64,000 bases of DNA from Eledone cirrhosa. Taxonomy: Eukaryota. The notes below the pieces were generated by a model. That model did no database searches. It was not told the origin of the DNA and saw only the letters and a program-made list of their open reading frames with translations. How positions within the stretch are numbered: the stretch's first letter is position 1; the number at the start of each line of letters is the position of its first letter. The translations under genes were made by a program, and so were the position numbers. This document shows positions 9,195 through 64,000 of the stretch, piece by piece. The stretch spans positions 193,936,001-194,000,000 of the forward strand of contig OZ024740.1 in NCBI GenBank assembly GCA_964016885.1, in the 5' to 3' direction.

Positions 9195-9200
<6 letters not shown>

Positions 9201-9310
9201 TTGAAAAAAATGAAAACGAAATTTCATTTCTCACTCTTAGTATGGCACTTAGTTAAATGTAAGTATGTATGTATACTACATACATATATGTATACAGACG
9301 TACAGTAGCA

Positions 9311-9349
<39 letters not shown>

Positions 9350-10260: not shown

Positions 10261-10340
<80 letters not shown>

Positions 10341-23877: not shown

Positions 23878-24455
23878 TAACAGACAAAATATAATGATAT
23901 GGGACAGGGAAAAGAAGGTATACAGAGTAGTGGAAGTTAGCTGCCGAGCAGATGCCAAAATTATATTAAAGATTAGCGAAAAGGAGAATATCTATGCAGA
24001 ACTAATGAGAAATCTGCAGATACTTCACCCTGACTATACGTTCAGATATATACTTGTGATTAATGGGGCACTGGGATGCGTTAGTAATTGCCTTACTACA
24101 AATCTTGAAAAGCTGGGCTTCACAGAAACAGAAAGACCACCACTAGTTAGGAAACTACAAGTACACTCCATTAATGAAACTGTAAAAATATGTCAAACAT
24201 TCAAAAAATTCTGCATCTAATAACTGTACAGACACAAAGCACACATGCACACATAAAGCTCAAAACATCCTCATCCACACATACAATAACATCCATACCT
24301 GCATACACATGCTTGCAGGCAGATATGCATACATGTCTAGTTGGTGTTGTTTAAATTCCAATGAGAGTCATGTGTCTATGTTAGAAAGCGATTCTCTCCC
24401 TATTGGTAACAATTCATAAAATTATAAAACCAGAAAAACATACACACATACACAC
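23878..24455 (+). mobile_element. 5'-truncated second R4/Dong-family copy (RLE C-terminus + 3'UTR), different subfamily
   Basis: NRQNIMIWD...VVEVSC...EKENIY..LMRNLQI..P.YTF..LVINGALG...KICQTF parallels the RLE at 23437-23778; starts right after the TACA tail of the preceding element. Confidence 0.85.
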
Positions 24456-27624: not shown

Positions 27625-27659
<35 letters not shown>

Positions 27660-29589: not shown

Positions 29590-32500
29590 CATATGTACCG
29601 GCGGACAAGGGAGGCGCCGTAGTGGTGTAGCGCGCGGCCGAAGCCCTCAGGCAGCTCTGTAACCCCCTCTTTTACCGCCCTCTACCCTCCGATCCCACCC
29701 CCCTCTACCAACAACAAGTCTCCTCCACCATCAAATACCTTATCGCCTCATCCCTCCTCCCCCCACCGCTTCCAACCTCATCTTCCGCACCCCCGCACCC
29801 CCACCATCTACTTCCTCCCCAAACTCCACAAACCCGACAACCCCGGCAGCCCCATCGTCTCCGCTTTCAACTGCTCCACCGAACTCATCTCCGCCTTTCT
29901 CGACTCCCTCCTCGCCCCCCTTGTCACCACCCTCCCCTCCCACATCTCCGATACCAACCACGCCCTGCGCCTTTTCGACTCCTTCACCTACCCACCTGGC
30001 CCACAGCCCTTGCTCTTCACCCTAGACATCAAGTCCCTCTATAATGTCATCCCCCACGCCGACGGCCTTCGCGCCCTCAAACACTACCTCGACCTTCGCC
30101 CCTCCCCCATTCCCTCCACCCCCACCCTCCTTCGCCTCGCCGAGCTGGTCCTCACCCTGAATTGTTTCTCTTTCTCGGGTGAGTTTTACCAACAGGTCAC
30201 GGGGGTAGCCATGGGTACAAGAATGGGCCCGAACTATGCCAACCTTTTTGTTTGCCATGTTGAGGCCCAAATCTTTGCCCAGTACACCGGCCCCACGCCC
30301 GAACTGTACGGTCGTTACATTGACGACTGTATCGGAGCCACGACCCTCACCCGAGAACAGCTCGACTCCTTTCTCTCCTTCTTCTGCTCCTTCCACCCCT
30401 CCCTCCACTTCACCACCTCTATCTCCACCACCCACGTCCACTTCTTAGACATCTACGTCGCCTTCGACCCCTCCCACCACTCCCTCGTCACCTCCGCCTT
30501 CTTCAAACCCACCGACTCCCACTCTTACCTCGACTTCACCTCTTCCCACACCACCCACACTAAACACTCCATTCCATACTCCCAACTTCTCAGGATCCGC
30601 CGCCTCTGTAGCCGTGATGCTGACTTTGAGTCCTAGGCCCTTTCCCTAGTCAGCCATTTCATCCGCAGAGGTTACCCCACCCCCTTCTCTCGTCCACACC
30701 GCTCACACCCGCGCCCGTACTGTCCCCTGCTCCACCACCCTCACGCCACGCAACCGCATACCCACCCACCGTCTCCCCTTCCCCATCACCAACCACCCCT
30801 CCACCTTACCCCTCCACCGCACCATCCGCCGCCTCTTCCGACGCCTCCAGTCCGACCCCTCCACCTCCCACATATTCCCAACCCCACCACTCCCCTCCTT
30901 CAAACGCGCACGCAATCTCCGCACCCTCCTCGTCCACAGCTCCCTACCCCCAACCCACACTCTGTGTCCCCCCCCCGGTTCCTTTCCCTGTTCTAGGCCC
31001 CGCTGCAAAACCTGTCCCCACATCACCAACACCGCCACCTTCCAGGGTCCCAACGGCCACTCTCTCTCTGTCCGGCATGCATTCCACTGCACCTCTTCCA
31101 ACCTAGTCTACGACTTATGTCGGTCAGACGGGACGTCGCCTGGCGGACCGAGTCACGGAGCACCTCCGGGATATTCGTCTCGGGGGAAGTTCCCCCATCG
31201 CCCGCCACTTTGGTGGCCCTGGACATTCCGCACGCCATCTCACAGTCTGTGGCCTACTCCAGTGCCACGGACCACCCGCCAATCGCCTTACGGTCGAACA
31301 ACGAACTATCTTCATCTTACAGACCCACACTCCCCCGGCCGAACTCCCCACCCCTATTTCTTTAGCCTTCGACCGCCCCCTCCCCCCACACTTATCCCCC
31401 ACTAACACCACTAACACACCCCACCTTTTCACCGCCCACCCCACAACTAACAATACTAACACCTCCACTCCACCCCCAATCTGACAACCCTTCCCCAACT
31501 AACATACTAACATCCCTTCCCTCCCCTATTCTCCTCCTCCCCCTCCTTATCACACGCACACACCCACCGGCACATATATACACGCGCTCACACTAAACAC
31601 ACACCCTACTACCACCACTAACCCTCACCCCCACACCTCTCACCCCCACACCTCTATCCCACCACCCTGCAACTAACCTCACTAACAGCCCCTAACCCCA
31701 AGCACACGAACACACGCACCCACTTACACCACCCACCCCACACGCAACTAACATCACTAACACCCCCTAACCCCACGCACACGTACCCACACACCCTCGT
31801 ACACCACCAACTCTACACACCCTACCACCACTAACCCCCACTCACACCTGCATTCAACCCCTCCCCACCTCCCGTATACTAACACCCACTAACACCTCTT
31901 CATCAAACTACACACACACCAGTACACCACACTCCCTCCATAGAACCACACACATCCTTCTCTCCCCGCTCCACCCACACCCTCGCTCCACTCTCACTCA
32001 TCCCACTAACACCCCTACTAATACACACACACACACCCTCCTCACTCCAACTTTCACCCCTACCCATCCTCGCCCCTTTACCATTCCACCGACTGCTGCT
32101 ATGCCCTCTGACCACCTCCCAGCACAAACAGACCACAGCACTCCCACTGCTGACCACTTCCTGTTGCGCGCGCACCCCACATCTCTCTTCTTCAGACCAT
32201 CGCTTCATGGAATACCCACACGCAGAAATTGACCAATAACCAATCCACTAAACATCTTCGGAATTTACCAACTTTTCAACCATCCTCTTACGTAATCACC
32301 TATATAACTCACCCACACAAACACCCCCCAAAAAAATGTTCTACACACGCTACCTACACCCACAACACGCTTAAACCCCACACACACGTGCTTTCCACCA
32401 CATATTTACACCCTCAGCCACCTGATTCCTCTCACCCCACCCTTCTATCCACACACGCACAGACACTCCGACCCCCCCCCCCCCAAACACACCTCTTCCT

Positions 32501-32995
32501 AAACATGCAACCCCGTTCTTCCCCCAACCCTTACTTTCACATACACACACACACACACACGCACACCTACACACACACACCACCTTCAGCCCTCCCCGCT
32601 CGGACACCCCGTCTCCCTCTCCCCACTCCACCCGCCACCACCCCTACACACCCCACACCCTTCCACCACTTGTTTGCCCCACTTTTAATTTCAGTTTATT
32701 TTGATCATGCCTTTATTTTTAAATTTATCTCATTCCTTGTATTTTGATCATGCTTTATTTTTATTTTTATCTCTATTTGTTATTTTTTCATTCGCACCGT
32801 TTCCTTTCGCTATATGTCTCTCCACCACTCCCCTACACATCCTTTGAACTCTGTTCCCACACACTTCCCACCTGAGGAAGGGCTTATGCCAGAAACGTCG
32901 TCCCCCACCAACACCCCACTCTCCAGAGCGTGAAATTAATAAACATTCGTTGTATTGCCTCTCTGTTTTGTCCCTGTTCAAATTTTTCCATTATA
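29590..32995 (+). mobile_element. 5'-truncated Penelope-like element (Neptune-like) with long C/A-rich 3' region and HHR-bearing pseudo-LTR
   Basis: RT and GIY-YIG motifs to ~31370; HHR-like CTGAGGA a ggc-ttat-gcc a GAAA cg TC at 32872-32899; AATAAA at ~32938; ends in (TA)n. Confidence 0.85.
29600..31370 (+). pseudogene. Disrupted PLE reverse transcriptase + GIY-YIG endonuclease
   Basis: ADKGGAVVV; YFLPKLHKPDNPG.PIVS; LFTLDIKSLY; GVAMGTRMGPNYANLF; RYIDD; FLDI; FKPTDSHSYL; IPYSQLLRIRRLCS; RGYP; linker CSRPRCKTC; FHCTSSNLVY...YVGQTGRRLADRVTEHLRDIR...PIARHF. Confidence 0.92.
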
Positions 32996-33794
32996 TATAT
33001 ATATATATATGGTGGTGGTGGGTCTGGTCTAATGTGGTATTTCGGTGTTTAATATCAGCTTTGACCCGGGTGTCCTACGCTGTGTGTGTGTGCGTGTGTG
33101 TCCGTGTATACATTTATATGTGTATGGGTGTAGGTGGTTGTATGTGTCTGTATATATAAAAAAAAATATATATATATATATGTATACCGTCTCTGCATAT
33201 GCATGTGGTGTGTATACGTGCATATACGTGCTGAACATATTGATGTGTACAATCTTGTGATGTCCCAATGCGGTGACTTAATGGCTCTTGAAGCTATTTT
33301 TTATATATTTTCTGTCTTTTTATATATCTTTTGTATGCGCTACAACTGTGTCTGCTTGCTTTAACCCGCCTGCACCTCGCTTGCTAATGCACGTGAATTC
33401 TTCTACCTCCTTCGATGCACCTCTCTCTGACCATTGGACTCCTGCCCGGGTGTGAACCGGTTTGTGATTACCCCCCCATGACTTTCGAGTGAACTTTTGA
33501 GACTGCCCAACCTGGGACGCCTCCATTGCCTTGCAATGGTCAAGTGATACTGGTGACTGTGACACTTAGTGCCTTCGTGGGCCCCTGATATATTCAAGAG
33601 ATATATTCTAAAAAAATATATATCTTATCCCAATTTACTTTATTTCATTTTATTTTATTTTATTTCATTTCATGTTATCTAATTTTATTTATTTACTTAC
33701 TTGACTCCATTTATTTATTTATTTATTTATTTAAATTTTAATTTTAATTTTAAATTTAAAATTTAAATTTTAATTTTATTTATTTATTTAATTT

Positions 33795-34416: not shown

Positions 34417-34462
34417 TGCTCTGATGAGTCCCACTTATAGTGCGGATGAAACAATGTTAGCA
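34417..34462 (+). ncRNA. Minimal type I hammerhead ribozyme at the end of an AT-rich PLE 3' region
   Basis: TGCT CTGATGA GTCC-cacttatagtgc-GGAT GAAA c-aat-g TT AGCA; followed ~40 nt later by (TA)n. Confidence 0.8.
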
Positions 34463-44424: not shown

Positions 44425-44900
44425 ATAAATAAACATTTAGAAAACCATAGGTATGAATAATACTGGCAGCGAACGCCACCAAGCGGTGTTCGTCAGAAGT
44501 AAAGGGGACAATCGTCGATGCATTTCGAACTCAACTGCGGCTCGTGAGTACGATCCCAACCGCTCTTGCAACTATCGGACTTTAAAAGCAAAAATATATA
44601 GCGTTTCGTCTGTATAAATGAGCCGATTAATCTCATTCTATTCTATTTGAAGTTGAACCAACTTATACAACTGCATATATAAATCAGATTAATCACCTCA
44701 TTTACACAGACGAAAAAAACTATATATTTTTGCCTGTTTTCAAAGTCCGGCAGTTGCCAGAGCGGGAGGGATCGTCCCGCCGAGAACCAGTTGAGTCCGA
44801 AATGCATCGACGATTGTCCACCTTGCTTCCGTCAGGCACCACTTGGTGGTGGTGGCTGCCAGTATTATTCATAGCTATGGCTTTCTAAATGTATATTTAT
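44425..44900. mobile_element. Foldback/MITE-like element with long imperfect terminal inverted repeats
   Basis: catttagaaaaccataggtatgaataatactggcagc (44434-) pairs with gctgccagtattattcatagctatggctttctaaatg (-44891); arms ~200 bp; no HHR seen; TA-rich flanks. Confidence 0.75.
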
Positions 44901-44977: not shown

Positions 44978-45004
<27 letters not shown>

Positions 45005-45010
<6 letters not shown>

Positions 45011-47707
45011 TTAGAAACACACAGATACATGCGGACACACACATATATACATGAATGCATCCGCACCCAACTGTGAGTTAAGGGTGCCAACTTCGCCGAT
45101 GTTGCTCAATGAATGACTGGGACAGACCAATTCAGTTGAACTAGACTGAACCAGTATCAGAGTTAAAAATACATTATGAAGAGAGAAGAAACATTTAGAT
45201 ATAATTAGTAATAAAATGTATCATACCTAAACTGCTCCTAAATTCCTCGACTACGTAGTTTCGTGGCATAAACAAAAACAATATATCATAAATACATAGA
45301 GTCCTTGCGAGGTCTGCCGACTTATCAACAGGATACCTCATTTTACTAGTCTCAAGAACGCGTCTACACGACGTGAGAAAGAATCCCAAAAGGCGGAGGG
45401 GGAGATAGTCACGCGATATAACGGTCGAGAAACAGAGCTAAGCCTCTTATAACCCCGAAGAAAATACCACGGAGGCGGAGGGGGTATTTATATCGAGGCC
45501 GTAGTAGAGGTGGTGAAGAAGGCGAGAAGTATGAGTAATGGAAGCTTTCCAGCTGTCCCCACACTTCAAAGATTGCTCGACCAGAGGGAGTTGTTAACAA
45601 TATATTTAGAAACACACAGATACATGCGGACACATACATATATACATGAATGCATCCGCACCCAACTGTGAGTTAAGGGTGCCAACTTCACCGATGTTGC
45701 TCAATGAATGACTGGAACAGACCAATTCAGTTGAACTAGACTGAACCAGTATCAGAGTTAAAAATACATTATGAAGAGAGAAGAAACATTTAGATATAAT
45801 TAGTAATAAAATGTATCATACCTAAACTGCTCCTAAATGCCTCGACTACGTAGTTTCGTGGCATAAACAAAAACAATATATCATAAAGACATAGAGTCCT
45901 TGCGAGGTCTGCCGACTTATCAAGAGGATACCTCATTTTACTAGTCTCAAGAACGCGTCTACACGACGTGAGAAAGAATCCCAAAAGGCGGAGGGGGAGA
46001 TAGTCACGCGATATAACGGTCGAGAAACAGAGCTAAGCCTCTTATAACCCCGAAGAAAATACCACGGAGGCGGAGGGGGTATTTATATCGAGGCCGTAGA
46101 AGAGGTGGTGAAGAAGGCGAGAAGTATGAGTAATGGAAGCTTTCCAGCTGTCCCCACACTTCAAAGATTGCTCGACCAGAGGGAGTTGTTAACAATATAT
46201 TTAGAAACACGCAGATACATGCGGACACATACATATATACATGAATGCATCCGCACCCAACTGTGAGTTAAGGGTGCCAACTTCACCGATGTTGCTCAAT
46301 GAATGACTGGGACAGACCAATTCAGTTGAACTAGACTGAACCAGTATCAGAGTTAAAAATACATTATGAAGAGAGAAGAAACATTTAGATATAATTAGTA
46401 ATAAAATGTATCATACCTAAACTGCTCCTAAATTCCTCGACTACGTAGTTTCGTGGCATGAACAAAAACAATATATCATAAAGACATAGAGTCCTTGCGA
46501 GGTCTGCCGATTTATCAAGAGGATACCTCATTTTACTAGTCTCAAGAACGCGTCTACACGACGTGAGAAAGAATCCCAAAAGGCGGAGGGGGAGATAGTC
46601 ACGCGATATAACGGTCGAGAAACAGAGCTAAGCCTCTTATAACCCCGAAGAAAATACCACGGAGGCGGAGGGGGTATTTATATCGAGGCCGTAGAAGAGG
46701 TGGTGAAGAAGGCGAGAAGTATGAGTAATGGAAGCTTTCCAGCTGTCCCCACACTTCAAAGATTGCTCGACCAGAGGGAGTTATTAACAATATATTTAGA
46801 AACACACAGATACATGCGGACACACACATATATACATGAATGCATCCGCACCCAACTGTGAGTTAAGGGTGCCAACTTCAGCGATGTTGCTCAATGAATG
46901 ACTGGGACAGACCAATTCAGTTGAACTAGACTGAACCAGTATCAGAGTTAAAAATACATTATGAAGAGAGAAGAAACATTTAGATATAATTAGTAATAAA
47001 ATGTATCATACCTAAACTGCTCCTAAATTCCTCGACTACGTAGTTTCGTGGCATAAACAAAAACAATATATCATAAAGACATGGAGTCCTTGCGAGGTCT
47101 GCCGACTTATCAAGAGGATACCTCATTTTACTAGTCTCAAGAACGCGTCTACACGACGTGAGAAAGAATCCCAAAAGGCGGAGGGGGAGATAGTCACGCG
47201 ATATAACGGTCGAGAAACAGAGCTAAGCCTCTCATAACCCCGAAGAAAATACCACGGAGGCGGAGGGGGTATTTATATCGAGGCCGTAGAAGAGGTGGTG
47301 AAGAAGGCGAGAAGTATGAGTAATGGAAGCTTTCCAGCTGTCCCCACACTTCAAAGATTGCTCGACCAGAGGGAGTTATTAACAATATATTTAGAAACAC
47401 ACAGATACATGCGGACACACACATATATACATGAATGCATCCGCACCCAACTGTGAGTTAAGGGTGCCAACTTCAGCGATGTTGCTCAATGAATGACTGG
47501 GACAGACCAATTCAGTTGAACTAGACTGAACCAGTATCAGAGTTAAAAATACATTATGAAGAGAGAAGAAAAATTTAGATATAATTAGTAATAAAATGTA
47601 TCATACCTAAACTGCTCCTAAATTCCTCGACTACGTAGTTTCGTGGCATAAACAAAAACAATATATCATAAAGACATAGAGACCTTGCGAGGTCTGCCGA
47701 CTTATCA
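45005..47707 (-). repeat. 595-bp tandem array, inverted block (~4.5 units)
   Basis: ORF track period is exactly 595 (45195, 45790, 46385, 46980); HHRs at 45244-45333, 45839-45928, 46434-46523, 47029-47118 and a truncated one at 47624-47707. Confidence 0.95.
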
Positions 47708-50700
47708 TACTTCTCGCCTTCTTCACCACCTCTTCTACGGCCTCGATATAAATACCCCCTCCGCCTCCGTGGTATTTTCTTCGGGGTTATAAGAGGCTTA
47801 GCTCTGTTTCTCGACCGTTATATCGCGTGACTATCTCCCCCTCCGCCTTTTGGGATTCTTTCTCACGTCGAGTAGACGCGTTCTTGAGACTAGTAAAATG
47901 AGGTATCCTCTTGATAAGTCGGCAGACCTCGCAAGGACTCTATGTCTTTATGATATATTGTTTTTGTTTATGCCACGAAACTACGTAGTCGAGGAATTTA
48001 GGAGCAGTTTAGGTATGATACATTTTATTACTAATTATATCTAAATGTTTCTTCTCTCTTCATAATGTATTTTTAACTCTGATACTGGTTCAGTCTAGTT
48101 CAACTGAATTGGTCTGTCCCAGTCATTCATTGAGCAACATCGGTGAAGTTGGCACCCTTAACTCACAGTTGGGTGCGGATGCATTCATGTATATATGTGT
48201 GTGTCCGCATGTATCTGTGTGTTTCTAAATATATTGTTAATAACTCCCTCTGGTTGAGCAATCTTTGAAGTGTGGGGACAGCTGGAAAGCTTCCATTACT
48301 CATACTTCTCGCCTTCTTCACCACCTCTTCTACGGCCTCGATATAAATACCCCCTCCGCCTCCGTGGTATTTTCTTCGGGGTTATAAGAGGCTTAGCTCT
48401 GTTTCTCGACCGTTATATCGCGTGACTATCTCCCCCTCCGCCTTTTGGGATTCTTTCTCACGTCGTGTAGACGCGTTCTTGAGACTAGTAAAATGAGGTA
48501 TCCTCTTGATAAGTCGGCTGACCTCGCAAGGACTCTATGTCTTTATGATATATTGTTTTTGTTTATGCCACGAAACTACGTCGTCGAGGAATTTAGGAGC
48601 AGTTTAGGTATGATACATTTTATTACTAATTATATCTAAATGTTTCTTCTCTCTTCATAATGTATTTTTAACTCTGATACTGGTTCAGTCTAGTTCAACT
48701 GAATTGGTCTGTCCCAGTCATTCATTGAGCAACATCGGTGAAGTTGGCACCCTTAACTCACAGTTGGGTGCGGATGCATTCATGTATATATGTGTGTGTC
48801 CGCATGTATCTGTGTGTTTCTAAATATATTGTTAATAACTCCCTCTGGTCGAGCAATCTTTGAAGTGTGGGGACAGCTGGAAAGCTTCCATTACTCATAC
48901 TTCTCGCCTTCTTCACCACCTCTTCTACGGCCTCGATATAAATACCCCCTCCGCCTCCGTGGTATTTTCTTCGGGGTTATAAGAGGCTTAGCTCTGTTTC
49001 TCGACCGTTATATCGCGTGATTATCTCTCCCTCCGCCTTTTGGGATTCTTTCTCACGTTGTGTAGACGCGTTCTTGAGACTAGTAAAATGAGGTATCCTC
49101 TTGATAAGTCGGCAGACCTCGCAAGGACTCTATGTCTTTATGATATATTGTTTTTGTTTATGCCACGAAACTACGTAGTCGAGGAATTTAGGAGCAGTTT
49201 AGGTATGATACATTTTATTACTAATTATATCTAAATGTTTCTTCTCTCTTCATAATGTATTTTTAACTCTGATACTGGTTCAGTCTAGTTCAACTGAATT
49301 GGTCTGTCCCAGTCATTCATTGAGCAACATCGGTGAAGTTGGCACCCTTAACTCACAGTTGGGTGCGGATGCATTCATGTATATATGTGTGTGTCCGCAT
49401 GTATCTGTGTGTTTCTAAATATATTGTTAATAACTCCCTCTGGTCGAGCAATCTTTGAAGTGTGGGGACAGCTGGAAAGCTTCCATTACTCATACTTCTC
49501 GCCTTCTTCACCACCTCTTCTACGGCCTCGATATAAATACCCCCTCCGCCTCCGTGGTATTTTCTTCGGGGTTATAAGAGGCTTAGCTCTGTTTCTCGAC
49601 CGTTATATCGCGTGACTATCTCCCCCTCCGCCTTTTGGGATTCTTTCTCACGTCGTGTAGACGCGTTCTTGAGACTAGTAAAATGAGGTATCCTCTTGAT
49701 AAGTCGGCAGACCTCGCAAGGACTCTATGTCTTTATGATATATTGTTTTTGTTTATGCCACGAAACTACGTAGTCGAGGAATTTAGGAGCAGTTTAGGTA
49801 TGATACATTTTATTACTAATTATATCTAAATGTTTCTTCTCTCTTCATAATGTATTTTTAACTCTGATACTGGTTCAGTCTAGTTCAACTGAATTGGTCT
49901 GTCCCAGTCATTCATTGAGCAACATCTTTGAAGTTGGCACCCTTAACTCACAGTTGGGTGCGGATGCATTCATGTATATATGTGTGTGTCCGCATGTATC
50001 TGTGTGTTTCTAAATATATTGTTAACAACTCCCTCTGGTCGAGCAATCTTTGAAGTGTGGGGACAGCTGGAAAGCTTCCATTACTCATACTTCTCGCCTT
50101 CTTCACCACCTCTTCTACGGCCTCGATATAAATACCCCCTCCGCCTCCGTGGTATTTTCTTCGGGGTTATAAGAGGCTTAGCTCTGTTTCTCGACCGTTA
50201 TATCGCGTGACTATCTCCCCCTCCGCCTTTTGGGATTCTTTCTCACGTCGTGTAGACGCGTTCTTGAGACTAGTAAAATGAGGTATCCTCTTGATAAGTC
50301 GGCAGACCTCGCAAGGACTCTATGTCTTTATGATATATTGTTTTTGTTTATGCCACGAAACTACGTAGTCGAGGAATTTAGGAGCAGTTTAGGTATGATA
50401 CATTTTATTACTAATTATATCTAAATGTTTCTTCTCTCTTCATAATGTATTTTTAACTCTGATACTGGTTCAGTCTAGTTCAACTGAATTGGTCTGTCCC
50501 AGTCATTCATTGAGCAACATCGGTGAAGTTGGCACCCTTAACTCACAGTTGGGTGCGGATGCATTCATGTATATATGTGTGTGTCCGCATGTATCTGTGT
50601 GTTTCTAAATATATTGTTAATAACTCCCTCTGGTCGAGCAATCTTTGAAGTGTGGGGACAGCTGGAAAGCTTCCATTACTCATACTTCTCGCCTTCTTCA

Positions 50701-53700
50701 CCACCTCTTCTACGGCCTCGATATAAATACCCCCTCCGCCTCCGTGGTATTTTCTTCGGGGTTATAAGAGGCTTAGCTCTGTTTCTCGACCGTTATATCG
50801 CGTGACTATCTCCCCCTCCGCCTTTTGGGATTCTTTCTCACGTCGTGTAGACGCGTTCTTGAGACTAGTAAAATGAGGTATCCTCTTGATAAGTCGGCTG
50901 ACCTCGCAAGGACTCTATGTCTTTATGATATATTGTTTTTGTTTATGCCACGAAACTACGTCGTCGAGGAATTTAGGAGCAGTTTAGGTATGATACATTT
51001 TATTACTAATTATATCTAAATGTTTCTTCTCTCTTCATAATGTATTTTTAACTCTGATACTGGTTCAGTCTAGTTCAACTGAATTGGTCTGTCCCAGTCA
51101 TTCATTGAGCAACATCGGTGAAGTTGGCACCCTTAACTCACAGTTGGGTGCGGATGCATTCATGTATATATGTGTGTGTCCGCATGTATCTGTGTGTTTC
51201 TAAATATATTGTTAATAACTCCCTCTGGTCGAGCAATCTTTGAAGTGTGGGGACAGCTGGAAAGCTTCCATTACTCATACTTCTCGCCTTCTTCACCACC
51301 TCTTCTACGGCCTCGATATAAATACCCCCTCCGCCTCCGTGGTATTTTCTTCGGGGTTATAAGAGGCTTAGCTCTGTTTCTCGACCGTTATATCGCGTGA
51401 TTATCTCTCCCTCCGCCTTTTGGGATTCTTTCTCACGTTGTGTAGACGCGTTCTTGAGACTAGTAAAATGAGGTATCCTCTTGATAAGTCGGCAGACCTC
51501 GCAAGGACTCTATGTCTTTATGATATATTGTTTTTGTTTATGCCACGAAACTACGTAGTCGAGGAATTTAGGAGCAGTTTAGGTATGATACATTTTATTA
51601 CTAATTATATCTAAATGTTTCTTCTCTCTTCATAATGTATTTTTAACTCTGATACTGGTTCAGTCTAGTTCAACTGAATTGGTCTGTCCCAGTCATTCAT
51701 TGAGCAACATCGGTGAAGTTGGCACCCTTAACTCACAGTTGGGTGCGGATGCATTCATGTATATATGTGTGTGTCCGCATGTATCTGTGTGTTTCTAAAT
51801 ATATTGTTAATAACTCCCTCTGGTCGAGCAATCTTTGAAGTGTGGGGACAGCTGGAAAGCTTCCATTACTCATACTTCTCGCCTTCTTCACCACCTCTTC
51901 TACGGCCTCGATATAAATACCCCCTCCGCCTCCGTGGTATTTTCTTCGGGGTTATAAGAGGCTTAGCTCTGTTTCTCGACCGTTATATCGCGTGACTATC
52001 TCCCCCTCCGCCTTTTGGGATTCTTTCTCACGTCGTGTAGACGCGTTCTTGAGACTAGTAAAATGAGGTATCCTCTTGATAAGTCGGCAGACCTCGCAAG
52101 GACTCTATGTCTTTATGATATATTGTTTTTGTTTATGCCACGAAACTACGTAGTCGAGGAATTTAGGAGCAGTTTAGGTATGATACATTTTATTACTAAT
52201 TATATCTAAATGTTTCTTCTCTCTTCATAATGTATTTTTAACTCTGATACTGGTTCAGTCTAGTTCAACTGAATTGGTCTGTCCCAGTCATTCATTGAGC
52301 AACATCTTTGAAGTTGGCACCCTTAACTCACAGTTGGGTGCGGATGCATTCATGTATATATGTGTGTGTCCGCATGTATCTGTGTGTTTCTAAATATATT
52401 GTTAACAACTCCCTCTGGTCGAGCAATCTTTGAAGTGTGGGGACAGCTGGAAAGCTTCCATTACTCATACTTCTCGCCTTCTTCACCACCTCTTCTACGG
52501 CCTCGATATAAATACCCCCTCCGCCTCCGTGGTATTTTCTTCGGGGTTATAAGAGGCTTAGCTCTGTTTCTCGACCGTTATATCGCGTGACTATCTCCCC
52601 CTCCGCCTTTTGGGATTCTTTCTCACGTCGTGTAGACGCGTTCTTGAGACTAGTAAAATGAGGTATCCTCTTGATAAGTCGGCAGACCTCGCAAGGACTC
52701 TATGTCTTTATGATATATTGTTTTTGTTTATGCCACGAAACTACGTAGTCGAGGAATTTAGGAGCAGTTTAGGTATGATACATTTTATTACTAATTATAT
52801 CTAAATGTTTCTTCTCTCTTCATAATGTATTTTTAACTCTGATACTGGTTCAGTCTAGTTCAACTGAATTGGTCTGTCCCAGTCATTCATTGAGCAACAT
52901 CGGTGAAGTTGGCACCCTTAACTCACAGTTGGGTGCGGATGCATTCATGTATATATGTGTGTGTCCGCATGTATCTGTGTGTTTCTAAATATATTGTTAA
53001 TAACTCCCTCTGGTCGAGCAATCTTTGAAGTGTGGGGACAGCTGGAAAGCTTCCATTACTCATACTTCTCGCCTTCTTCACCACCTCTTCTACGGCCTCG
53101 ATATAAATACCCCCTCCGCCTCCGTGGTATTTTCTTCGGGGTTATAAGAGGCTTAGCTCTGTTTCTCGACCGTTATATCGCGTGACTATCTCCCCCTCCG
53201 CCTTTTGGGATTCTTTCTCACGTCGTGTAGACGCGTTCTTGAGACTAGTAAAATGAGGTATCCTCTTGATAAGTCGGCAGACCTCGCAAGGACTCTATGT
53301 CTTTATGATATATTGTTTCTGTTTATGCCACGAAACTACGTAGTCGAGGAATTTAGGAGCAGTTTAGGTATGATACATTTTATTACTAATTATATCTAAA
53401 TGTTTCTTCTCTCTTCATAATGTATTTTTAACTCTGATACTGGTTCAGTCTAGTTCAACTGAATTGGTCTGTCCCAGTCATTCATTGAGCAACATCGGTC
53501 AAGTTGGTACCCTTAACTCACAGTTGGGTGCGGATGCATTCATGTATATATGTGTGTGCCCGCATGTATCTGTGTGTTTCTAAATATATTGTTAATAACT
53601 CCCTCTGGTCGAGCAATCTTTGAAGTGTGGGGACAGCTGGAAAGCTTCCATTACTCATACTTCTCGCCTTCTTCACCACCTCTTCTACGGCCTCGATATA

Positions 53701-56700
53701 AATACCCCCTCCGCCTCCGTGGTATTTTCTTCGGGGTTATAAGAGGCTTAGCTCTGTTTCTCGACCGTTATATCGCGTGACTATCTCCCCCTCCGCCTTT
53801 TGGGATTCTTTCTCACGTCGTGTAGACGCGTTCTTGAGACTAGTAAAATGAGGTATCCTCTTGATAAGTCGGCAGACCTCGCAAGGACTCTATGTCTTTA
53901 TGATATATTGTTTTTGTTTATGCCACGAAACTACGTCGTCGAGGAATTTAGGAGCAGTTTAGGTATGATACATTTTATTACTAATTATATCTAAATGTTT
54001 CTTCTCTCTTCATAATGTATTTTTAACTCTGATACTGGTTCAGTCTAGTTCAACTGAATTGGTCTGTCCCAGTCATTCATTGAGCAACATCGGTGAAGTT
54101 GGCACCCTTAACTCACAGTTGGGTGCGGATGCATTCATGTATATATGTGTGTGTCCGCATGTATCTGTGTGTTTCTAAATATATTGTTAATAACTCCCTC
54201 TGGTCGAGCAATCTTTGAAGTGTGGGGACAGCTGGAAAGCTTCCATTACTCATACTTCTCGCCTTCTTCACCACCTCTTCTACGGCCTCGATATAAATAC
54301 CCCCTCCGCCTCCGTGGTATTTTCTTCGGGGTTATAAGAGGCTTAGCTCTGTTTCTCGACCGTTATATCGCGTGATTATCTCCCCCTCCGCCTTTTGGGA
54401 TTCTTTCTCACGTTGTGTAGACGCGTTCTTGAGACTAGTAAAATGAGGTATCCTCTTGATAAGTCGGCAGACCTCGCAAGGACTCTATGTCTTTATGATA
54501 TATTGTTTTTGTTTATGCCACGAAACTACGTAGTCGAGGAATTTAGGAGCAGTTTAGGTATGATACATTTTATTACTAATTATATCTAAATGTTTCTTCT
54601 CTCTTCATAATGTATTTTTAACTCTGATACTGGTTCAGTCTAGTTCAACTGAATTGGTCTGTCCCAGTCATTCATTGAGCAACATCGGTGAAGTTGGCAC
54701 CCTTAACTCACAGTTGGGTGCGGATGCATTCATGTATATATGTGTGTGTCCGCATGTATCTGTGTGTTTCTAAATATATTGTTAATAACTCCCTCTGGTC
54801 GAGCAATCTTTGAAGTGTGGGGACAGCTGGAAAGCTTCCATTACTCATACTTCTCGCCTTCTTCACCACCTCTTCTACGGCCTCGATATAAATACCCCCT
54901 CCGCCTCCGTGGTATTTTCTTCGGGGTTATAAGAGGCTTAGCTCTGTTTCTCGACCGTTATATCGCGTGACTATCTCCCCCTCCGCCTTTTGGGATTCTT
55001 TCTCACGTCGTGTAGACGCGTTCTTGAGACTAGTAAAATGAGGTATCCTCTTGATAAGTCGGCAGACCTCGCAAGGACTCTATGTCTTTATGATATATTG
55101 TTTTTGTTTATGCCACGAAACTACGTAGTCGAGGAATTTAGGAGCAGTTTAGGTATGATACATTTTATTACTAATTATATCTAAATGTTTCTTCTCTCTT
55201 CATAATGTATTTTTAACTCTGATACTGGTTCAGTCTAGTTCAACTGAATTGGTCTGTCCCAGTCATTCATTGAGCAACATCTTTGAAGTTGGCACCCTTA
55301 ACTCACAGTTGGGTGCGGATGCATTCATGTATATATGTGTGTGTCCGCATGTATCTGTGTGTTTCTAAATATATTGTTAACAACTCCCTCTGGTCGAGCA
55401 ATCTTTGAAGTGTGGGGACAGCTGGAAAGCTTCCATTACTCATACTTCTCGCCTTCTTCACCACCTCTTCTACGGCCTCGATATAAATACCCCCTCCGCC
55501 TCCGTGGTATTTTCTTCGGGGTTATAAGAGGCTTAGCTCTGTTTCTCGACCGTTATATCGCGTGACTATCTCCCCCTCCGCCTTTTGGGATTCTTTCTCA
55601 CGTCGTGTAGACGCGTTCTTGAGACTAGTAAAATGAGGTATCCTCTTGATAAGTCGACAGACCTCGCAAGGACTCTATGTCTTTATGATATATTGTTTTT
55701 GTTTATGCCACGAAACTACGTAGTCGAGGAATTTAGGAGCAGTTTAGGTATGATACATTTTATTACTAATTATATCTAAATGTTTCTTCTCTCTTCATAA
55801 TGTATTTTTAACTCTGATACTGGTTCAGTCTAGTTCAACTGAATTGGTCTGTCCCAGTCATTCATTGAGCAACATCGGTGAAGTTGGCACCCTTAACTCA
55901 CAGTTGGGTGCGGATGCATTCATGTATATATGTGTGTGTCCGCATGTATCTGTGTGTTTCTAAATATATTGTTAATAACTCCCTCTGGTCGAGCAATCTT
56001 TGAAGTGTGGGGACAGCTGGAAAGCTTCCATTACTCATACTTCTCGCCTTCTTCACCACCTCTTCTACGGCCTCGATATAAATACCCCCTCCGCCTCCGT
56101 GGTATTTTCTTCGGAGTTATAAGAGGCTTAGCTCTGTTTCTCGACCGTTATATCGCGTGACTATCTCCCCCTCCGCCTTTTGGGATTCTTTCTCACGTCG
56201 TGTAGACGCGTTCTTGAGACTAGTAAAATGAGGTATCCTCTTGATAAGTCGGCAGACCTCGCAAGGACTCTATGTCTTTATGATATATTGTTTTTGTTTA
56301 TGCCACGAAACTACGTAGTCGAGGAATTTAGGAGCAGTTTAGGTATGATACATTTTATTACTAATTATATCTAAATGTTTCTTCTCTCTTCATAATGTAT
56401 TTTTAACTCTGATACTGGTTCAGTCTAGTTCAACTGAATTGGTCTGTCCCAGTCATTCATTGAGCAACATCTTTGAAGTTGGCACCCTTAACTCACAGTT
56501 GGGTGCGGATGCATTCATGTATATATGTGTGTGTCCGCATGTATCTGTGTGTTTCTAAATATATTGTTAATAACTCCCTCTGGTCGAGCAATCTTTGAAG
56601 TGTGGGGACAGCTGGAAAGCTTCCATTACTCATACTTCTCGCCTTCTTCACCACCTCTTCTACGGCCTCGATATAAATACCCCCTCCGCCTCCGTGGTAT

Positions 56701-59700
56701 TTTCTTCGGGGTTATAAGAGGCTTAGCTCTGTTTCTCGACCGTTATATCGCGTGACTATCTCCCCCTCCGCCTTTTGGGATTCTTTCTCACGTCGTGTAG
56801 ACGCGTTCTTGAGACTAGTAAAATGAGGTATCCTCTTGATAAGTCGGCAGACCTCGCAAGGACTCTATGTCTTTATGATATATTGTTTCTGTTTATGCCA
56901 CGAAACTACGTAGTCGAGGAATTTAGGAGCAGTTTAGGTATGATACATTTTATTACTAATTATATCTAAATGTTTCTTCTCTCTTCATAATGTATTTTTA
57001 ACTCTGATACTGGTTCAGTCTAGTTCAACTGAATTGGTCTGTCCCAGTCATTCATTGAGCAACATCGGTCAAGTTGGTACCCTTAACTCACAGTTGGGTG
57101 CGGATGCATTCATGTATATATGTGTGTGCCCGCATGTATCTGTGTGTTTCTAAATATATTGTTAATAACTCCCTCTGGTCGAGCAATCTTTGAAGTGTGG
57201 GGACAGCTGGAAAGCTTCCATTACTCATACTTCTCGCCTTCTTCACCACCTCTTCTACGGCCTCGATATAAATACCCCCTCCGCCTCCGTGGTATTTTCT
57301 TCGGGGTTATAAGAGGCTTAGCTCTGTTTCTCGACCGTTATATCGCGTGACTATCTCCCCCTCCGCCTTTTGGGATTCTTTCTCACGTCGTGTAGACGCG
57401 TTCTTGAGACTAGTAAAATGAGGTATCCTCTTGATAAGTCGGCAGACCTCGCAAGGACTCTATGTCTTTATGATATATTGTTTTTGTTTATGCCACGAAA
57501 CTACGTCGTCGAGGAATTTAGGAGCAGTTTAGGTATGATACATTTTATTACTAATTATATCTAAATGTTTCTTCTCTCTTCATAATGTATTTTTAACTCT
57601 GATACTGGTTCAGTCTAGTTCAACTGAATTGGTCTGTCCCAGTCATTCATTGAGCAACATCGGTGAAGTTGGCACCCTTAACTCACAGTTGGGTGCGGAT
57701 GCATTCATGTATATATGTGTGTGTCCGCATGTATCTGTGTGTTTCTAAATATATTGTTAATAACTCCCTCTGGTCGAGCAATCTTTGAAGTGTGGGGACA
57801 GCTGGAAAGCTTCCATTACTCATACTTCTCGCCTTCTTCACCACCTCTTCTACGGCCTCGATATAAATACCCCCTCCGCCTCCGTGGTATTTTCTTCGGG
57901 GTTATAAGAGGCTTAGCTCTGTTTCTCGACCGTTATATCGCGTGATTATCTCCCCCTCCGCCTTTTGGGATTCTTTCTCACGTTGTGTAGACGCGTTCTT
58001 GAGACTAGTAAAATGAGGTATCCTCTTGATAAGTCGGCAGACCTCGCAAGGACTCTATGTCTTTATGATATATTGTTTTTGTTTATGCCACGAAACTACG
58101 TAGTCGAGGAATTTAGGAGCAGTTTAGGTATGATACATTTTATTACTAATTATATCTAAATGTTTCTTCTCTCTTCATAATGTATTTTTAACTCTGATAC
58201 TGGTTCAGTCTAGTTCAACTGAATTGGTCTGTCCCAGTCATTCATTGAGCAACATCGGTGAAGTTGGCACCCTTAACTCACAGTTGGGTGCGGATGCATT
58301 CATGTATATATGTGTGTGTCCGCATGTATCTGTGTGTTTCTAAATATATTGTTAATAACTCCCTCTGGTCGAGCAATCTTTGAAGTGTGGGGACAGCTGG
58401 AAAGCTTCCATTACTCATACTTCTCGCCTTCTTCACCACCTCTTCTACGGCCTCGATATAAATACCCCCTCCGCCTCCGTGGTATTTTCTTCGGGGTTAT
58501 AAGAGGCTTAGCTCTGTTTCTCGACCGTTATATCGCGTGACTATCTCCCCCTCCGCCTTTTCGGATTCTTTCTCACGTCGTGTAGACGCGTTCTTGAGAC
58601 TAGTAAAATGAGGTATCCTCTTGATAAGTCGGCAGACCTCGCAAGGACTCTATGTCTTTATGATATATTGTTTTTGTTTATGCCACGAAACTACGTAGTC
58701 GAGGAATTTAGGAGCAGTTTAGGTATGATACATTTTATTACTAATTATATCTAAATGTTTCTTCTCTCTTCATAATGTATTTTTAACTCTGATACTGGTT
58801 CAGTCTAGTTCAACTGAATTGGTCTGTCCCAGTCATTCATTGAGCAACATCTTTGAAGTTGGCACCCTTAACTCACAGTTGGGTGCGGATGCATTCATGT
58901 ATATATGTGTGTGTCCGCATGTATCTGTGTGTTTCTAAATATATTGTTAACAACTCCCTCTGGTCGAGCAATCTTTGAAGTGTGGGGACAGCTGGAAAGC
59001 TTCCATTACTCATACTTCTCGCCTTCTTCACCACCTCTTCTACGGCCTCGATATAAATACCCCCTCCGCCTCCGTGGTATTTTCTTCGGGGTTATAAGAG
59101 GCTTAGCTCTGTTTCTCGACCGTTATATCGCGTGACTATCTCCCCCTCCGCCTTTTGGGATTCTTTCTCACGTCGTGTAGACGCGTTCTTGAGACTAGTA
59201 AAATGAGGTATCCTCTTGATAAGTCGACAGACCTCGCAAGGACTCTATGTCTTTATGATATATTGTTTTTGTTTATGCCACGAAACTACGTAGTCGAGGA
59301 ATTTAGGAGCAGTTTAGGTATGATACATTTTATTACTAATTATATCTAAATGTTTCTTCTCTCTTCATAATGTATTTTTAACTCTGATACTGGTTCAGTC
59401 TAGTTCAACTGAATTGGTCTGTCCCAGTCATTCATTGAGCAACATCGGTGAAGTTGGCACCCTTAACTCACAGTTGGGTGCGGATGCATTCATGTATATA
59501 TGTGTGTGTCCGCATGTATCTGTGTGTTTCTAAATATATTGTTAATAACTCCCTCTGGTCGAGCAATCTTTGAAGTGTGGGGACAGCTGGAAAGCTTCCA
59601 TTACTCATACTTCTCGCCTTCTTCACCACCTCTTCTACGGCCTCGATATAAATACCCCCTCCGCCTCCGTGGTATTTTCTTCGGAGTTATAAGAGGCTTA

Positions 59701-62700
59701 GCTCTGTTTCTCGACCGTTATATCGCGTGACTATCTCCCCCTCCGCCTTTTGGGATTCTTTCTCACGTCGTGTAGACGCGTTCTTGAGACTAGTAAAATG
59801 AGGTATCCTCTTGATAAGTCGGCAGACCTCGCAAGGACTCTATGTCTTTATGATATATTGTTTTTGTTTATGCCACGAAACTACGTAGTCGAGGAATTTA
59901 GGAGCAGTTTAGGTATGATACATTTTATTACTAATTATATCTAAATGTTTCTTCTCTCTTCATAATGTATTTTTAACTCTGATACTGGTTCAGTCTAGTT
60001 CAACTGAATTGGTCTGTCCCAGTCATTCATTGAGCAACATCTTTGAAGTTGGCACCCTTAACTCACAGTTGGGTGCGGATGCATTCATGTATATATGTGT
60101 GTGTCCGCATGTATCTGTGTGTTTCTAAATATATTGTTAATAACTCCCTCTGGTCGAGCAATCTTTGAAGTGTGGGGACAGCTGGAAAGCTTCCATTACT
60201 CATACTTCTCGCCTTCTTCACCACCTCTTCTACGGCCTCGATATAAATACCCCCTCCGCCTCCGTGGTATTTTCTTCGGGGTTATAAGAGGCTTAGCTCT
60301 GTTTCTCGACCGTTATATCGCGTGACTATCTCCCCCTCCGCCTTTTGGGATTCTTTCTCACGTCGTGTAGACGCGTTCTTGAGACTAGTAAAATGAGGTA
60401 TCCTCTTGATAAGTCGGCAGACCTCGCAAGGACTCTATGTCTTTATGATATATTGTTTCTGTTTATGCCACGAAACTACGTAGTCGAGGAATTTAGGAGC
60501 AGTTTAGGTATGATACATTTTATTACTAATTATATCTAAATGTTTCTTCTCTCTTCATAATGTATTTTTAACTCTGATACTGGTTCAGTCTAGTTCAACT
60601 GAATTGGTCTGTCCCAGTCATTCATTGAGCAACATCGGTGAAGTTGGTACCCTTAACTCACAGTTGGGTGCGGATGCATTCATGTATATATGTGTGTGCC
60701 CGCATGTATCTGTGTGTTTCTAAATATATTGTTAATAACTCCCTCTGGTCGAGCAATCTTTGAAGTGTGGGGACAGCTGGAAAGCTTCCATTACTCATAC
60801 TTCTCGCCTTCTTCACCACCTCTTCTACGGCCTCGATATAAATACCCCCTCCGCCTCCGTGGTATTTTCTTCGGGGTTATAAGAGGCTTAGCTCTGTTTC
60901 TCGACCGTTATATCGCGTGACTATCTCCCCCTCCGCCTTTTGGGATTCTTTCTCACGTCGTGTAGACGCGTTCTTGAGACTAGTAAAATGAGGTATCCTC
61001 TTGATAAGTCGGCAGACATCGAAAGGACTCTATGTCTTTATGATATATTGTTTTTGTTTATGCCACGAAACTACGTAGTCGAGGAATTTAGGAGCAGTTT
61101 AGGTATGATACATTTTATTACTAATTATATCTAAATGTTTCTTCTCTCTTCATAATGTATTTTTAACTCTGATACTGGTTCAGTCTAGTTCAACTGAATT
61201 GGTCTGTCCCAGTCATTCATTGAGCAACATCGGTGAAGTTGGCACCCTTAACTCACAGTTGGGTGCGGATGCATTCATGGATATATGTGTGTGTCCGCAT
61301 GTATCTGTGTGTTTCTAAATATATTGTTAATAACTCCCTCTGGTCGAGCAATCTTTGAAGTGTGGGGACAGCTGGAAAGCTTCCATTACTCATACTTCTC
61401 GCCTTCTTCACCACCTCTTCTACGGCCTCGATATAAATACCCCCTCCGCCTCCGTGGTATTTTCTTCGGGGTTATAAGAGGCTTAGCTCTGTTTCTCGAC
61501 CGTTATATCGCGTGACTATCTCCCCCTCCGCCTTTTGGGATTCTTTCTCACGTCGTGTAGACGCGTTCTTGTGACTAGTAAAATGAGGTATCCTCTTGAT
61601 AAGTCGGCAGACCTCGAAAGGACTCTATGTCTTTATGATATATTGTTTTTGTTTATGCCACGAAACTACGTAGTCGAGGAATTTAGGAGCAGTTTAGGTA
61701 TGATACATTTTATTACTAATTATATCTAAATGTTTCTTCTCTCTTCATAATGTATTTTTAACTCTGATACTGGTTCAGTCTAGTTCAACTGAATTGGTCT
61801 GTCCCAGTCATTCATTGAACTACATCTTTGAAGTTGGCACCCTTAACTCACAGTTGGGTGCGGATGCATTCATGTATATATGTGTGTGTCCGCATGTATC
61901 TGTGTGTTTCTAAATATATTGTTAATAACTCCCTCTGGTCGAGCAATCTTTGAAGTGTGGGGACAGCTGGAAAGCTTCCATTACTCATACTTCTCGCCTT
62001 CTTCACCACCTCTTCTACGGCCTCGATATAAATACCCCCTCCGCCTCCGTGGTATTTTCTTCGGGGTTATAAGAGGCTTAGCTCTGTTTCTCGACCGTTA
62101 TATCGCGTGACTATCTCCCCCTCCGCCTTTTGGGATTCTTTCTCACGTCGTGTAGACGCGTTCTTGTGACTAGTAAAATGAGGTATCCTCTTGATAAGTC
62201 GGCAGACCTCGAAAGGACTCTATGTCTTTATGATATATTGTTTCTGTTTATGCCACGAAACTACGTAGTCGAGGAATTTAGGAGCAGTTTAGGTATGATA
62301 CATTTTATTACTAATTATATCTAAATGTTTCTTCTCTCTTCATAATGTATTTTTAACTCTGATACTGGTTCAGTCTAGTTCAACTGAATTGGTCTGTCCC
62401 AGTCATTCATTGAGCAACATCGGTGAAGTTGGTACCCTTAACTCACAGTTGGGTGCGGATGCATTCATGTATATATGTGTGTGCCCGCATGTATCTGTGT
62501 GTTTCTAAATATATTGTTAATAACTCCCTCTGGTCGAGCAATCTTTGAAGTGTGGGGACAGCTGGAAAGCTTCCATTACTCATACTTCTCGCCTTCTTCA
62601 CCACCTCTTCTACGGCCTCGATATAAATACCCCCTCCGCCTCCGTGGTATTTTCTTCGGGGTTATAAGAGGCTTAGCTCTGTTTCTCGACCGTTATATCG

Positions 62701-64000
62701 CGTGACTATCTCCCCCTCCGCCTTTTGGGATTCTTTCTCACGTCGTGTAGACGCGTTCTTGAGACTAGTAAAATGAGGTATCCTCTTGATAAGTCGGCAG
62801 ACATCGAAAGGACTCTATGTCTTTATGATATATTGTTTTTGTTTATGCCACGAAACTACGTAGTCGAGGAATTTAGGAGCAGTTTAGGTATGATACATTT
62901 TATTACTAATTATATCTAAATGTTTCTTCTCTCTTCATAATGTATTTTTAACTCTGATACTGGTTCAGTCTAGTTCAACTGAATTGGTCTGTCCCAGTCA
63001 TTCATTGAGCAACATCGGTGAAGTTGGCACCCTTAACTCACAGTTGGGTGCGGATGCATTCATGGATATATGTGTGTGTCCGCATGTATCTGTGTGTTTC
63101 TAAATATATTGTTAATAACTCCCTCTGGTCGAGCAATCTTTGAAGTGTGGGGACAGCTGGAAAGCTTCCATTACTCATACTTCTCGCCTTCTTCACCACC
63201 TCTTCTACGGCCTCGATATAAATACCCCCTCCGCCTCCGTGGTATTTTCTTCGGGGTTATAAGAGGCTTAGCTCTGTTTCTCGACCGTTATATCGCGTGA
63301 CTATCTCCCCCTCCGCCTTTTGGGATTCTTTCTCACGTCGTGTAGACGCGTTCTTGTGACTAGTAAAATGAGGTATCCTCTTGATAAGTCGGCAGACCTC
63401 GAAAGGACTCTATGTCTTTATGATATATTGTTTTTGTTTATGCCACGAAACTACGTAGTCGAGGAATTTAGGAGCAGTTTAGGTATGATACATTTTATTA
63501 CTAATTATATCTAAATGTTTCTTCTCTCTTCATAATGTATTTTTAACTCTGATACTGGTTCAGTCTAGTTCAACTGAATTGGTCTGTCCCAGTCATTCAT
63601 TGAACTACATCTTTGAAGTTGGCACCCTTAACTCACAGTTGGGTGCGGATGCATTCATGTATATATGTGTGTGTCCGCATGTATCTGTGTGTTTCTAAAT
63701 ATATTGTTAATAACTCCCTCTGGTCGAGCAATCTTTGAAGTGTGGGGACAGCTGGAAAGCTTCCATTACTCATACTTCTCGCCTTCTTCACCACCTCTTC
63801 TACGGCCTCGATATAAATACCCCCTCCGCCTCCGTGGTATTTTCTTCGGGGTTATAAGAGGCTTAGCTCTGTTTCTCGACCGTTATATCGCGTGACTATC
63901 TCCCCCTCCGCCTTTTGGGATTCTTTCTCATGTCGTGTAGACGCGTTCTTGAGACTAGTAAAATGAGGTATCCTCTTGATAAGTCGGCAGACCTCGCAAG
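47705..64000 (+). repeat. 595-bp tandem array, forward block (~27.4 units, continues past the window), one HHR per unit
   Basis: Exact 595-bp period from 47850 to 63320 in the ORF track; units differ by a few substitutions and no net indel. Confidence 0.97.
47906..47995 (+). ncRNA. Type I hammerhead ribozyme, U3-A8 core variant (first forward copy; repeats every 595 bp to 63376-63465)
   Basis: TCCTC TTGATAA GT-c-GGCA...TGCC-AC GAAA CTACGTAG TC GAGGA. Stem I TCCTC/GAGGA, palindromic stem III, GUC with predicted cleavage after 47990. Confidence 0.8.

Follow-up and report, generated by a model that had tools for sequence, protein, structure and literature searches.

How did a 20.3-kb tandem array of 595-bp units, each carrying a hammerhead ribozyme motif, come to stand in the genome of Eledone cirrhosa, and is it the satellite that it resembles? 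The array fills the right-hand part of a stretch of 64,000 nucleotides (nt) (contig OZ024740.1, positions 193,936,001 to 194,000,000; hereafter the window). It is probably a member of a dispersed family of 595-bp hammerhead units inserted into (TA)n tracts, likely a non-autonomous retrozyme copied by a Penelope-like enzyme, and it likely grew in place to its 34 units. The giant array itself appears to be ordinary, and its sequence places the family among the retrozymes without long terminal repeats (non-LTR retrozymes) rather than in a new class. The more interesting part lies in the dispersed copies, whose mechanistic marks open the proposed cycle to direct test.

A BLAST search with a single unit tiles the array in exact register, as an inverted arm (45004–47707) joined head-to-head to a forward arm that runs from 47705 to the window edge. 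The analysis reproduced the count made in an earlier reading of the same DNA (the first-pass annotation), namely 595-bp units with 27 complete forward hammerheads (the first at 47906–47995, the last at 63376–63465) and four inverted ones, 31 in all; a 28th forward ribozyme is interrupted by the window edge. The extent given there, at least 19 kb from position 45005, holds as a minimum, but the array begins at 45004 and, in the neighbouring DNA, continues 1,325 bp past the window edge to end in (TA)n, which brings the locus to 20.3 kb and 34 ribozymes. The 33 full units differ pairwise by 0.87% on average, and the consensus is found at all 44 core and stem positions in 22 of the 31 ribozymes of the window (24 of 34 overall), so the array is not uniform. 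It holds no open frame of at least 100 amino acids, and its two outer ends obey the family end rule described below, one lying at site A and the other at site B.

The first-pass annotation had called the locus a satellite-scale, recently homogenised retrozyme-like array and had proposed a genome search for dispersed copies. That search, made with the unit, returned 1,385 candidate places, 39 of which were scored, with full units at 98–99% identity on many contigs. An 18-nt motif from the 3′ part of the ribozyme has 7,914 exact matches in the genome (reversed control, 0), and the window's own subtype has 303. Most listed loci hold one to five units; among 37 scored candidates the longest other single arms reach seven to eight, and within that sample the window locus is a size outlier. 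A classical satellite family would be restricted to long arrays, whereas this one consists mostly of dispersed insertions of one to five units, and the supposedly homogenised array is a single (TA)n insertion with nested block duplications. The insertions are partial tandems with variable 5′ ends and no LTR structure, a primer-binding site and a polypurine tract not having been searched for, and target-site duplications are unreadable within (TA)n. Older subfamilies (~78–94% identity) have the same unit and the same ends. The retrozyme-like identity proposed earlier is borne out by the tandem non-coding units, the type I hammerhead in each and the dispersed copies; indeed, every retrozyme trait that could be tested at the DNA level was found, and retrozyme RNA and its cleavage are predicted. 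None of six listed runs is of RNA, which has no bearing on expression; the contigs of four of them cover all 30 bins with related variants, and circles are there indistinguishable from tandem DNA. Runs X4, X5 and X6, labelled as three different organisms, contain close relatives of the unit, and one 620-base contig among them closes on itself at a 589-base period. A metagenome pattern scan gave 0 matches. Whole insertions have also been duplicated in tandem together with their flanks, at locus L191 and at G000:C1:338974550-338982382 (two copies and apparently three).

With unit position 1 set at 47991, stem I (TCCTC/GAGGA) falls at unit positions 511–515/596–600, the core U3 U4 G5 A6 U7 A8 A9 (TTGATAA) at 516–522 and the pair G10.1-C11.1 at 523/581. 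Stem II is bulged, and the 3′ part of the motif comprises G12 A13 A14 (GAAA), a 10-nt palindrome and C17 at unit position 595. All core boxes and the three helices map in type I order, with U3-A8 in the core, and the parts assigned in the first-pass annotation (stem I, core, bulged stem II, 46-nt insert, GAAA, palindromic stem III and a GTC ending at 47990) are as it described them. The U3-A8 core is already known from a schistosome Penelope-like family, and pairing through a palindromic stem III is a known dimer design of hammerheads (PMC4209133). In the Eledone unit the palindrome is predicted to pair two ribozymes with each other (−14.3 kcal/mol) rather than to form a hairpin. Standard models miss this ribozyme, as had been anticipated: within the window no Rfam family reached its gathering score, and a search of 47800–49200 at E ≤ 10 brought up no hammerhead, its six weak microRNA matches being dismissed as chance.

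The ribozyme proved to be conserved in related copies. When the majority letter of the old subfamily is compared with the young consensus, 0 of 44 ribozyme sites differ, against 93 of 551 elsewhere (p = 8e-4). The comparison used 30 loci chosen by whole-unit similarity to one old copy, one segment of which proved young; this seed copy had been found through a motif of the 5′ half, so that ascertainment leaves only the 3′ half (0 of 25 differing) untouched. All 12 substitutions listed across the ribozyme in a contig of a different run fall in the loop II insert. These comparisons support a genuine, conserved type I hammerhead, predicted to be self-cutting in each unit. The stretches at both fixed ends are conserved between old and young subfamilies as well. 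The unit as a whole folds strongly (z = −7.3); the old letters disrupt 17 pairs of the young fold where 31.5 ± 3.4 would be expected, and the reverse test gives 22 against 31.8 ± 3.5, with four double compensations. At locus L243, an A>G change within the stem III palindrome is present in all turns, with pairing retained as G·U.

The ends of the insertions follow a simple rule. Of 98 insertion clusters, 36 have one arm and 62 are head-to-head; in 52 of the latter an end near unit position 80 (site A) is combined with one near 245 (site B), while there is one case of 80 + 80, one of 245 + 245 and eight with an end elsewhere (one duplicated locus enters the head-to-head count twice). The combination A + B recurred in five of five further complete loci. 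TA-rich DNA adjoins 145 of 160 fixed ends, and the arms overlap by 1–10 bases at 18 of 20 junctions. Simultaneous copying to equal arm lengths was considered and rejected, the lengths being uncorrelated (rho = −0.04, n = 52). Since both fixed ends are internal to the unit and the 5′ ends are variable, copying has to pass through the cleavage site. The template was therefore circular, an uncut multimer, or a monomer that the enzyme entered again by a jump. Inverted Penelope copies have a tail of 30–40 bp at one end (PMC3846280, PMC8557442), and a purified Penelope-type enzyme cuts and extends both strands from two internal start sites (PMC11167929). The end rule is the same hallmark as the Penelope tail, here with a tail of 165 nt. 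No report of one-site-per-arm counts in retrozymes was found in the literature searched (mostly non-subscription journals, supplements excluded).

The variants carried by individual loci bear on the choice among these templates. Across 42 loci, divergence is 0.33% within arms and 0.34% between arms, against 1.37% between loci, and 134 informative alleles confined to one sampled locus divide into 31 present throughout its turns, 4 present in part of them and 99 in a single turn. The haplotype of L197 fills all eight of its turns, and its eight genome matches are all in L197 (five in one arm, three in the other). L239, an insertion of 8.5 kb and ~14 turns, has four shared variants and just three single differences; this locus (G000:C1:193445663-193454133) is of the same subtype as the window array and lies 530 kb from it. 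The private all-turn haplotype of L197 and the near-uniformity of L239 therefore point to a one-unit template at some step, and L239 is the best candidate for a direct rolling-circle product. Turn-to-turn junctions carry no scars, and no insertions or deletions (indels) occur at unit position 595/1 in the aligned loci. At L195, L199 and L241 there are variants confined to two adjacent turns, for which a modified template base, conversion or local duplication may be considered.

A further mark is the direction of change. Among derived all-turn alleles in 44 loci, read on the ribozyme strand, 14 are A>G and 3 are T>C of 34 (p = 2e-4; 18 alleles equal to the old-subfamily letter were left out of this count), and the excess of A>G persists when structure-tolerant sites alone serve as the reference (p = 0.007). 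Single-turn variants number 11 A>G versus 20 T>C of 137. Six of the eight changes specific to L197 are A>G, and in six later loci the new all-turn alleles include four A>G in eight and no T>C, two of the four being equal to the old letter. The 14 A>G sites have a 5′ G in 0, a 5′ U or A in 12 and a 3′ G in 6 (p 0.02–0.07), a neighbour pattern that presumably fits the preferences of ADAR. The simplest reading of these alleles is that edited RNA of the ribozyme strand served as the template, with ADAR as the putative cause of the bias. The same body of literature yielded no report of editing footprints in retrozymes.

As for the array itself, its most likely history, to judge from its units, is that an ordinary short insertion aged and then expanded in DNA. 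Its units recur in blocks (Table 1); the longest block run is 6 against 1.9 in shuffles, and 0 of 5,000 shuffles reach it. The duplicated blocks differ from each other by single bases, and only 1 of 40 array alleles is A>G, a DNA-like mutation spectrum. One two-base array variant has six of six genome matches in this array, a second has five matches here and three in other subfamilies, and one variant, T251C, is common to both arms. The array was also considered as the family's master source, which was rejected as the two variants traced through the genome had not spread from it, and as a pure one-step rolling-circle product, which was rejected because the units differ in blocks.

These marks could together be the fossil record of germline rolling-circle reverse transcription of an A-to-I-edited circular ribozyme RNA, carried out by a Penelope-type enzyme dimer whose halves must start at different sites of one RNA; we advance this more specific reading tentatively and rate it somewhat below an even chance. 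The cycle proposed under the preferred, broader reading runs as follows. A multimer locus would be transcribed on the ribozyme strand, and paired ribozymes would cleave some of this RNA into monomers, which would be ligated into circles, while other multimers would stay uncut. The structured RNA would acquire A-to-I edits, to which we would attribute the observed strand-biased A>G. A protein with GIY-YIG and reverse transcriptase (RT) domains would then cut both (TA)n strands, and the two DNA ends would prime at positions 80 and 245 of the same template; the end rule is observed, while the enzyme is presumed. Each arm would extend for up to eight turns, and the two cDNAs would join head-to-head, usually at short microhomology, as is seen in the copies. 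Finally, at the window locus, unequal exchange or slippage would have produced the observed duplications of three-, four- and six-unit blocks. The fossil-record reading, if true, would explain the Penelope 'tail' together with the inverted arms, name a candidate enzyme and show a satellite array born from one insertion. Rolling-circle copying of retrozyme circles by Penelope-like enzymes has been proposed before and stated to be unresolved (PMC7229834; 10.64898/2026.07.22.740005), and the later steps of Penelope insertion are described as unvalidated (PMC11167929).

Several observations weigh against the reading preferred here. The L200 haplotype is not private, five of its nine matches lying elsewhere. 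Loci L030, L241 and L242 have unit-specific variants common to both arms in register, and at L240 (453–4835) variants alternate between turns with period 2, one with period 4, patterns that a monomer circle cannot yield. The alternation suggests a multimeric template or later duplication, and it is likely that uncut or circular multimers also act as templates. Some variants of L011 and L201 are absent from one arm or turn, and the loci as a whole were selected by similarity or turn number, not at random. Adding the 18 outgroup-reversed sites weakens the A>G bias to 16 versus 8 (p = 0.004). The full ribozyme fold is not the lowest in energy (within 215 nt of context the active structure costs 4.7 kcal/mol more than the minimum, and the motif by itself gives z = −1.6), and the three stems are invariant save a one-sided A>G (U-A to U·G) in stem I, with no double covariation. 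In a 2026 survey, eight of nine frog retrozyme dimers failed to cleave in vitro (10.64898/2026.07.22.740005). On the enzyme side, a lizard element works from uncut RNA in vitro, and its start sites do not differ between strands (PMC11167929), and comparison of the unit with 77 Penelope-like loci (a small sample of 10,596 GIY-YIG candidates) and with the 3′ region of L219 found no similarity beyond chance.

Some of these points would be expected if uncut linear multimer transcripts were the templates of the same Penelope-type mobiliser, the ribozyme being kept for protein binding or folding and circles playing no part. The in-register variants on both arms of L030, L241 and L242, an active fold that is not favoured and a lizard enzyme for which cleavage is dispensable in vitro (PMC11167929) all sit well with such an arrangement, which we nevertheless regard as unlikely. 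Multimers could hardly fix a genome-unique, A>G-rich haplotype in all eight L197 turns across both arms, or keep the ~14 turns of L239 nearly identical, unless the assembly lacks the donors and these had in turn gone through a one-unit stage; the scar-free junctions between turns tell against them too. Uniform turns would need no ligase if the templates were cleaved linear monomers and the reverse transcriptase, on reaching the 5′ end, jumped back to the 3′ end of that molecule and so imitated a circle, and jumps among molecules could account for partly shared variants. Yet jumping would be expected to leave indels at unit position 595/1, where the aligned loci have none, and jumps between molecules should often mix haplotypes in the cell, whereas most loci are uniform; we judge this distinctly improbable.

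The two accounts that dispense with either the proposed cycle or growth in place fare worse. That the 20-kb array was inserted full-length from the long transcript of another array, or was inflated by misassembly, seems very improbable: L239 does show that direct insertions reach up to 8.5 kb, and T251C stands on both arms, but no donor carries the tested array variants (the second has its five matches here and three in other subfamilies), the mutations follow a DNA-like spectrum, single bases separate the duplicated blocks, and the family rule is obeyed at both ends. Least credible of all is that the family moves as DNA, by a Helitron-like rolling circle or through extrachromosomal circles, with the hammerhead as a passenger. 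Tandem turns and uniform loci would fit DNA circles equally well, and no partner was found by sequence among the Penelope-like loci examined; against it stand the strand-biased A>G of all-turn alleles, the conserved ribozyme and a set of traits that recurs in Penelope-like elements of the same genome, namely 3′ ends that are fixed while 5′ ends vary, arms placed head-to-head and insertion into (TA)n.

Copying by a Penelope-like enzyme thus remains the preferred reading, and, as the first-pass annotation had supposed, Penelope-like elements are the likely mobilisers of the family, with which they share the (TA)n target and the mixed two-end behaviour. The genome is rich in elements with RT and GIY-YIG sited in (TA)n, with 10,596 GIY-YIG candidates. 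One young family with both domains, L210-L228, shows 3.9 mismatches per 920 bases (0.4%) across 19 loci; 28 of the 171 pairs show no difference, and in 9 of the 19 loci the frame stays open for all of the 603 codons covered. Its two 3′ ends, ~55 nt apart, are mixed in four of four head-to-head copies examined, and its variants show no A>G bias (8 versus 7 of 70). Its protein has a Cys linker, a feature assigned to Neptune and Nematis elements (PMC8557442). By age, target and behaviour only, this family is a candidate for the enzyme, in the sense of 'works like' and not of 'derived from'; a faint likeness of site A to its short end was seen post hoc and was not counted. Three other families look older: the C-rich Neptune-like family of the window (best copies match the window copy at ~95% of amino acids, and in the three loci read the longest frames are shifted), the L129 family (~98%) and the 34.4-kb repeat family (90–94%). 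The 3′ region of the L210-L228 family (L219:1810-2410) carries inverted CCAAT boxes, a TATA-like box and a minimal hammerhead-like motif. The named relatives of one Penelope-like protein are mostly from bivalve molluscs, at ≤62%.

Set beside the animal non-LTR retrozymes of coral, mussel and axolotl (PMC7229834; 10.64898/2026.07.22.740005), the Eledone family shares non-coding tandem units with a type I hammerhead in each, low G+C, a highly structured unit, dispersed monomers to multimers and coexisting Penelope-like elements. It differs in its U3-A8 core, 46-nt loop II insert, strict (TA)n targeting, head-to-head arms, two fixed ends and A>G footprint, and is known here from DNA alone. Its unit exceeds the typical 150–450 bp but falls within the 51–972 bp of the 2026 survey. 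The exceptional size and unit length suggested at first are not supported, since coral retrozyme arrays reach 62 units (PMC7229834) and others 180–300 units, with family lengths of 51–972 bp (10.64898/2026.07.22.740005). The pseudo-LTRs (pLTRs) and 'tail' of Penelope-like elements, such as Poseidon of Anolis (PMC11167929; PMC3846280; PMC8557442), resemble the Eledone insertions in a hammerhead upstream of internal 3′ ends, two start sites, AT-rich targets, an inverted 5′-truncated arm and a tail at one end only. In contrast, the Eledone unit has no open reading frame, its tail is 165 nt versus 30–40 nt and its arms make many turns across the cleavage site; moreover, one site per arm was counted in Eledone, whereas in vitro both strands used both sites (PMC11167929). 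The schistosome Cercyon minimal hammerhead (PMC4209133) has the same U3-A8 change, but its motifs are mostly single and heterogeneous, whereas the Eledone motif sits in a tandem family that is young and non-coding and has a complete palindromic stem III. Newt satellite 2 and axolotl Rtz331 (PMC7229834) share a weak palindromic helix III that predicts dimeric cleavage, and satellite-like arrays; the Eledone family has a variant core, a longer unit and an array traceable to one (TA)n insertion. In Chlamys, MRC1 and further non-autonomous elements (PMC8557442) likewise form multicopy head-to-tail insertions at microsatellite targets, but as a rule they have 3′ sequence in common with an autonomous family, and most are without a hammerhead, whereas no sequence partner was found here among the Penelope-like loci examined.

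One genome thus brings together a defined RNA with two start sites mapped on it, a defined target DNA and, as candidate enzyme, one that is young and intact; from these the cycle could be rebuilt in vitro. Two tests that need only sequence are suggested for any retrozyme family, the search for private all-turn alleles and for strand-biased A>G, and RNA editing may here feed heritable variation into a mobile element.

Table 1. Features of the hammerhead array in window coordinates (unit position 1 = 47991).
Feature	Coordinates	Strand	Remarks
Whole head-to-head insertion	45004..64000, on to window-equivalent 65325	.	20.3 kb; ends in (TA)n
(TA)n target tract	44978..45003	.	Left end
Inverted arm	45004..47707	-	~4.5 units, 4 ribozymes; outer end = unit position 245 (site B)
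Forward arm	47705..64000	+	~29.6 units overall, 27 complete ribozymes in window; outer end = unit position 80 (site A)
TCA microhomology	47705..47707	.	Arm junction
First forward type I hammerhead	47906..47995	+	
Core U3-U4-G5-A6-U7-A8-A9	47911..47917	+	U3-A8 replacing C3-G8
Loop II insert	47925..47970	+	46 nt, hairpin-forming; sequence differs among subfamilies
Stem III	47980..47989	+	10-nt palindrome
Predicted cleavage site	47990..47991	+	After GUC
Site A	48041..48070	+	Conserved stretch up to unit position 80; fixed 3′ end of insertions
Site B	48190..48241	+	Conserved stretch up to unit positions 244–251; other fixed 3′ end
TATA-like box and C-rich box	48342..48360	+	Second C-rich box 48432–48442
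Four-unit block duplication	47991..52750	+	Units 1–4 recur as 5–8
Six-unit block duplication	53346..60485	+	Units 10–15 recur as 16–21
Three-unit-period duplication	60486..64000	+	Units 22–23 recur as 25–26; unit 27 partly matches 24

The TATA-like and C-rich boxes are a possible internal promoter; the TATA-like box is altered in other subfamilies. Immediately left of the array (44455–44870) lies a ~400-bp element with imperfect terminal inverted repeats, similar to a miniature inverted-repeat transposable element. Elsewhere in the window, positions 29600–33000 hold a broken Penelope-like element with RT, Cys linker and (TA)n flanks, whose family counts 22,752 candidate places; at 32872–32902 the element includes a minimal hammerhead-like motif. 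A second hammerhead-like motif (34421–34460), with the canonical C3-G8 core, stands near the 3′ end of another (TA)n-ending repeat, which has 1,134 candidate places, the best copies at 90–94%. A reverse transcriptase of the long interspersed nuclear element (LINE) type and a zf-RVT piece are spread over several frames at 20582–24220, and two further tandem arrays, at 9196–10289 and 26191–28592, are built of related 430–470-bp units.

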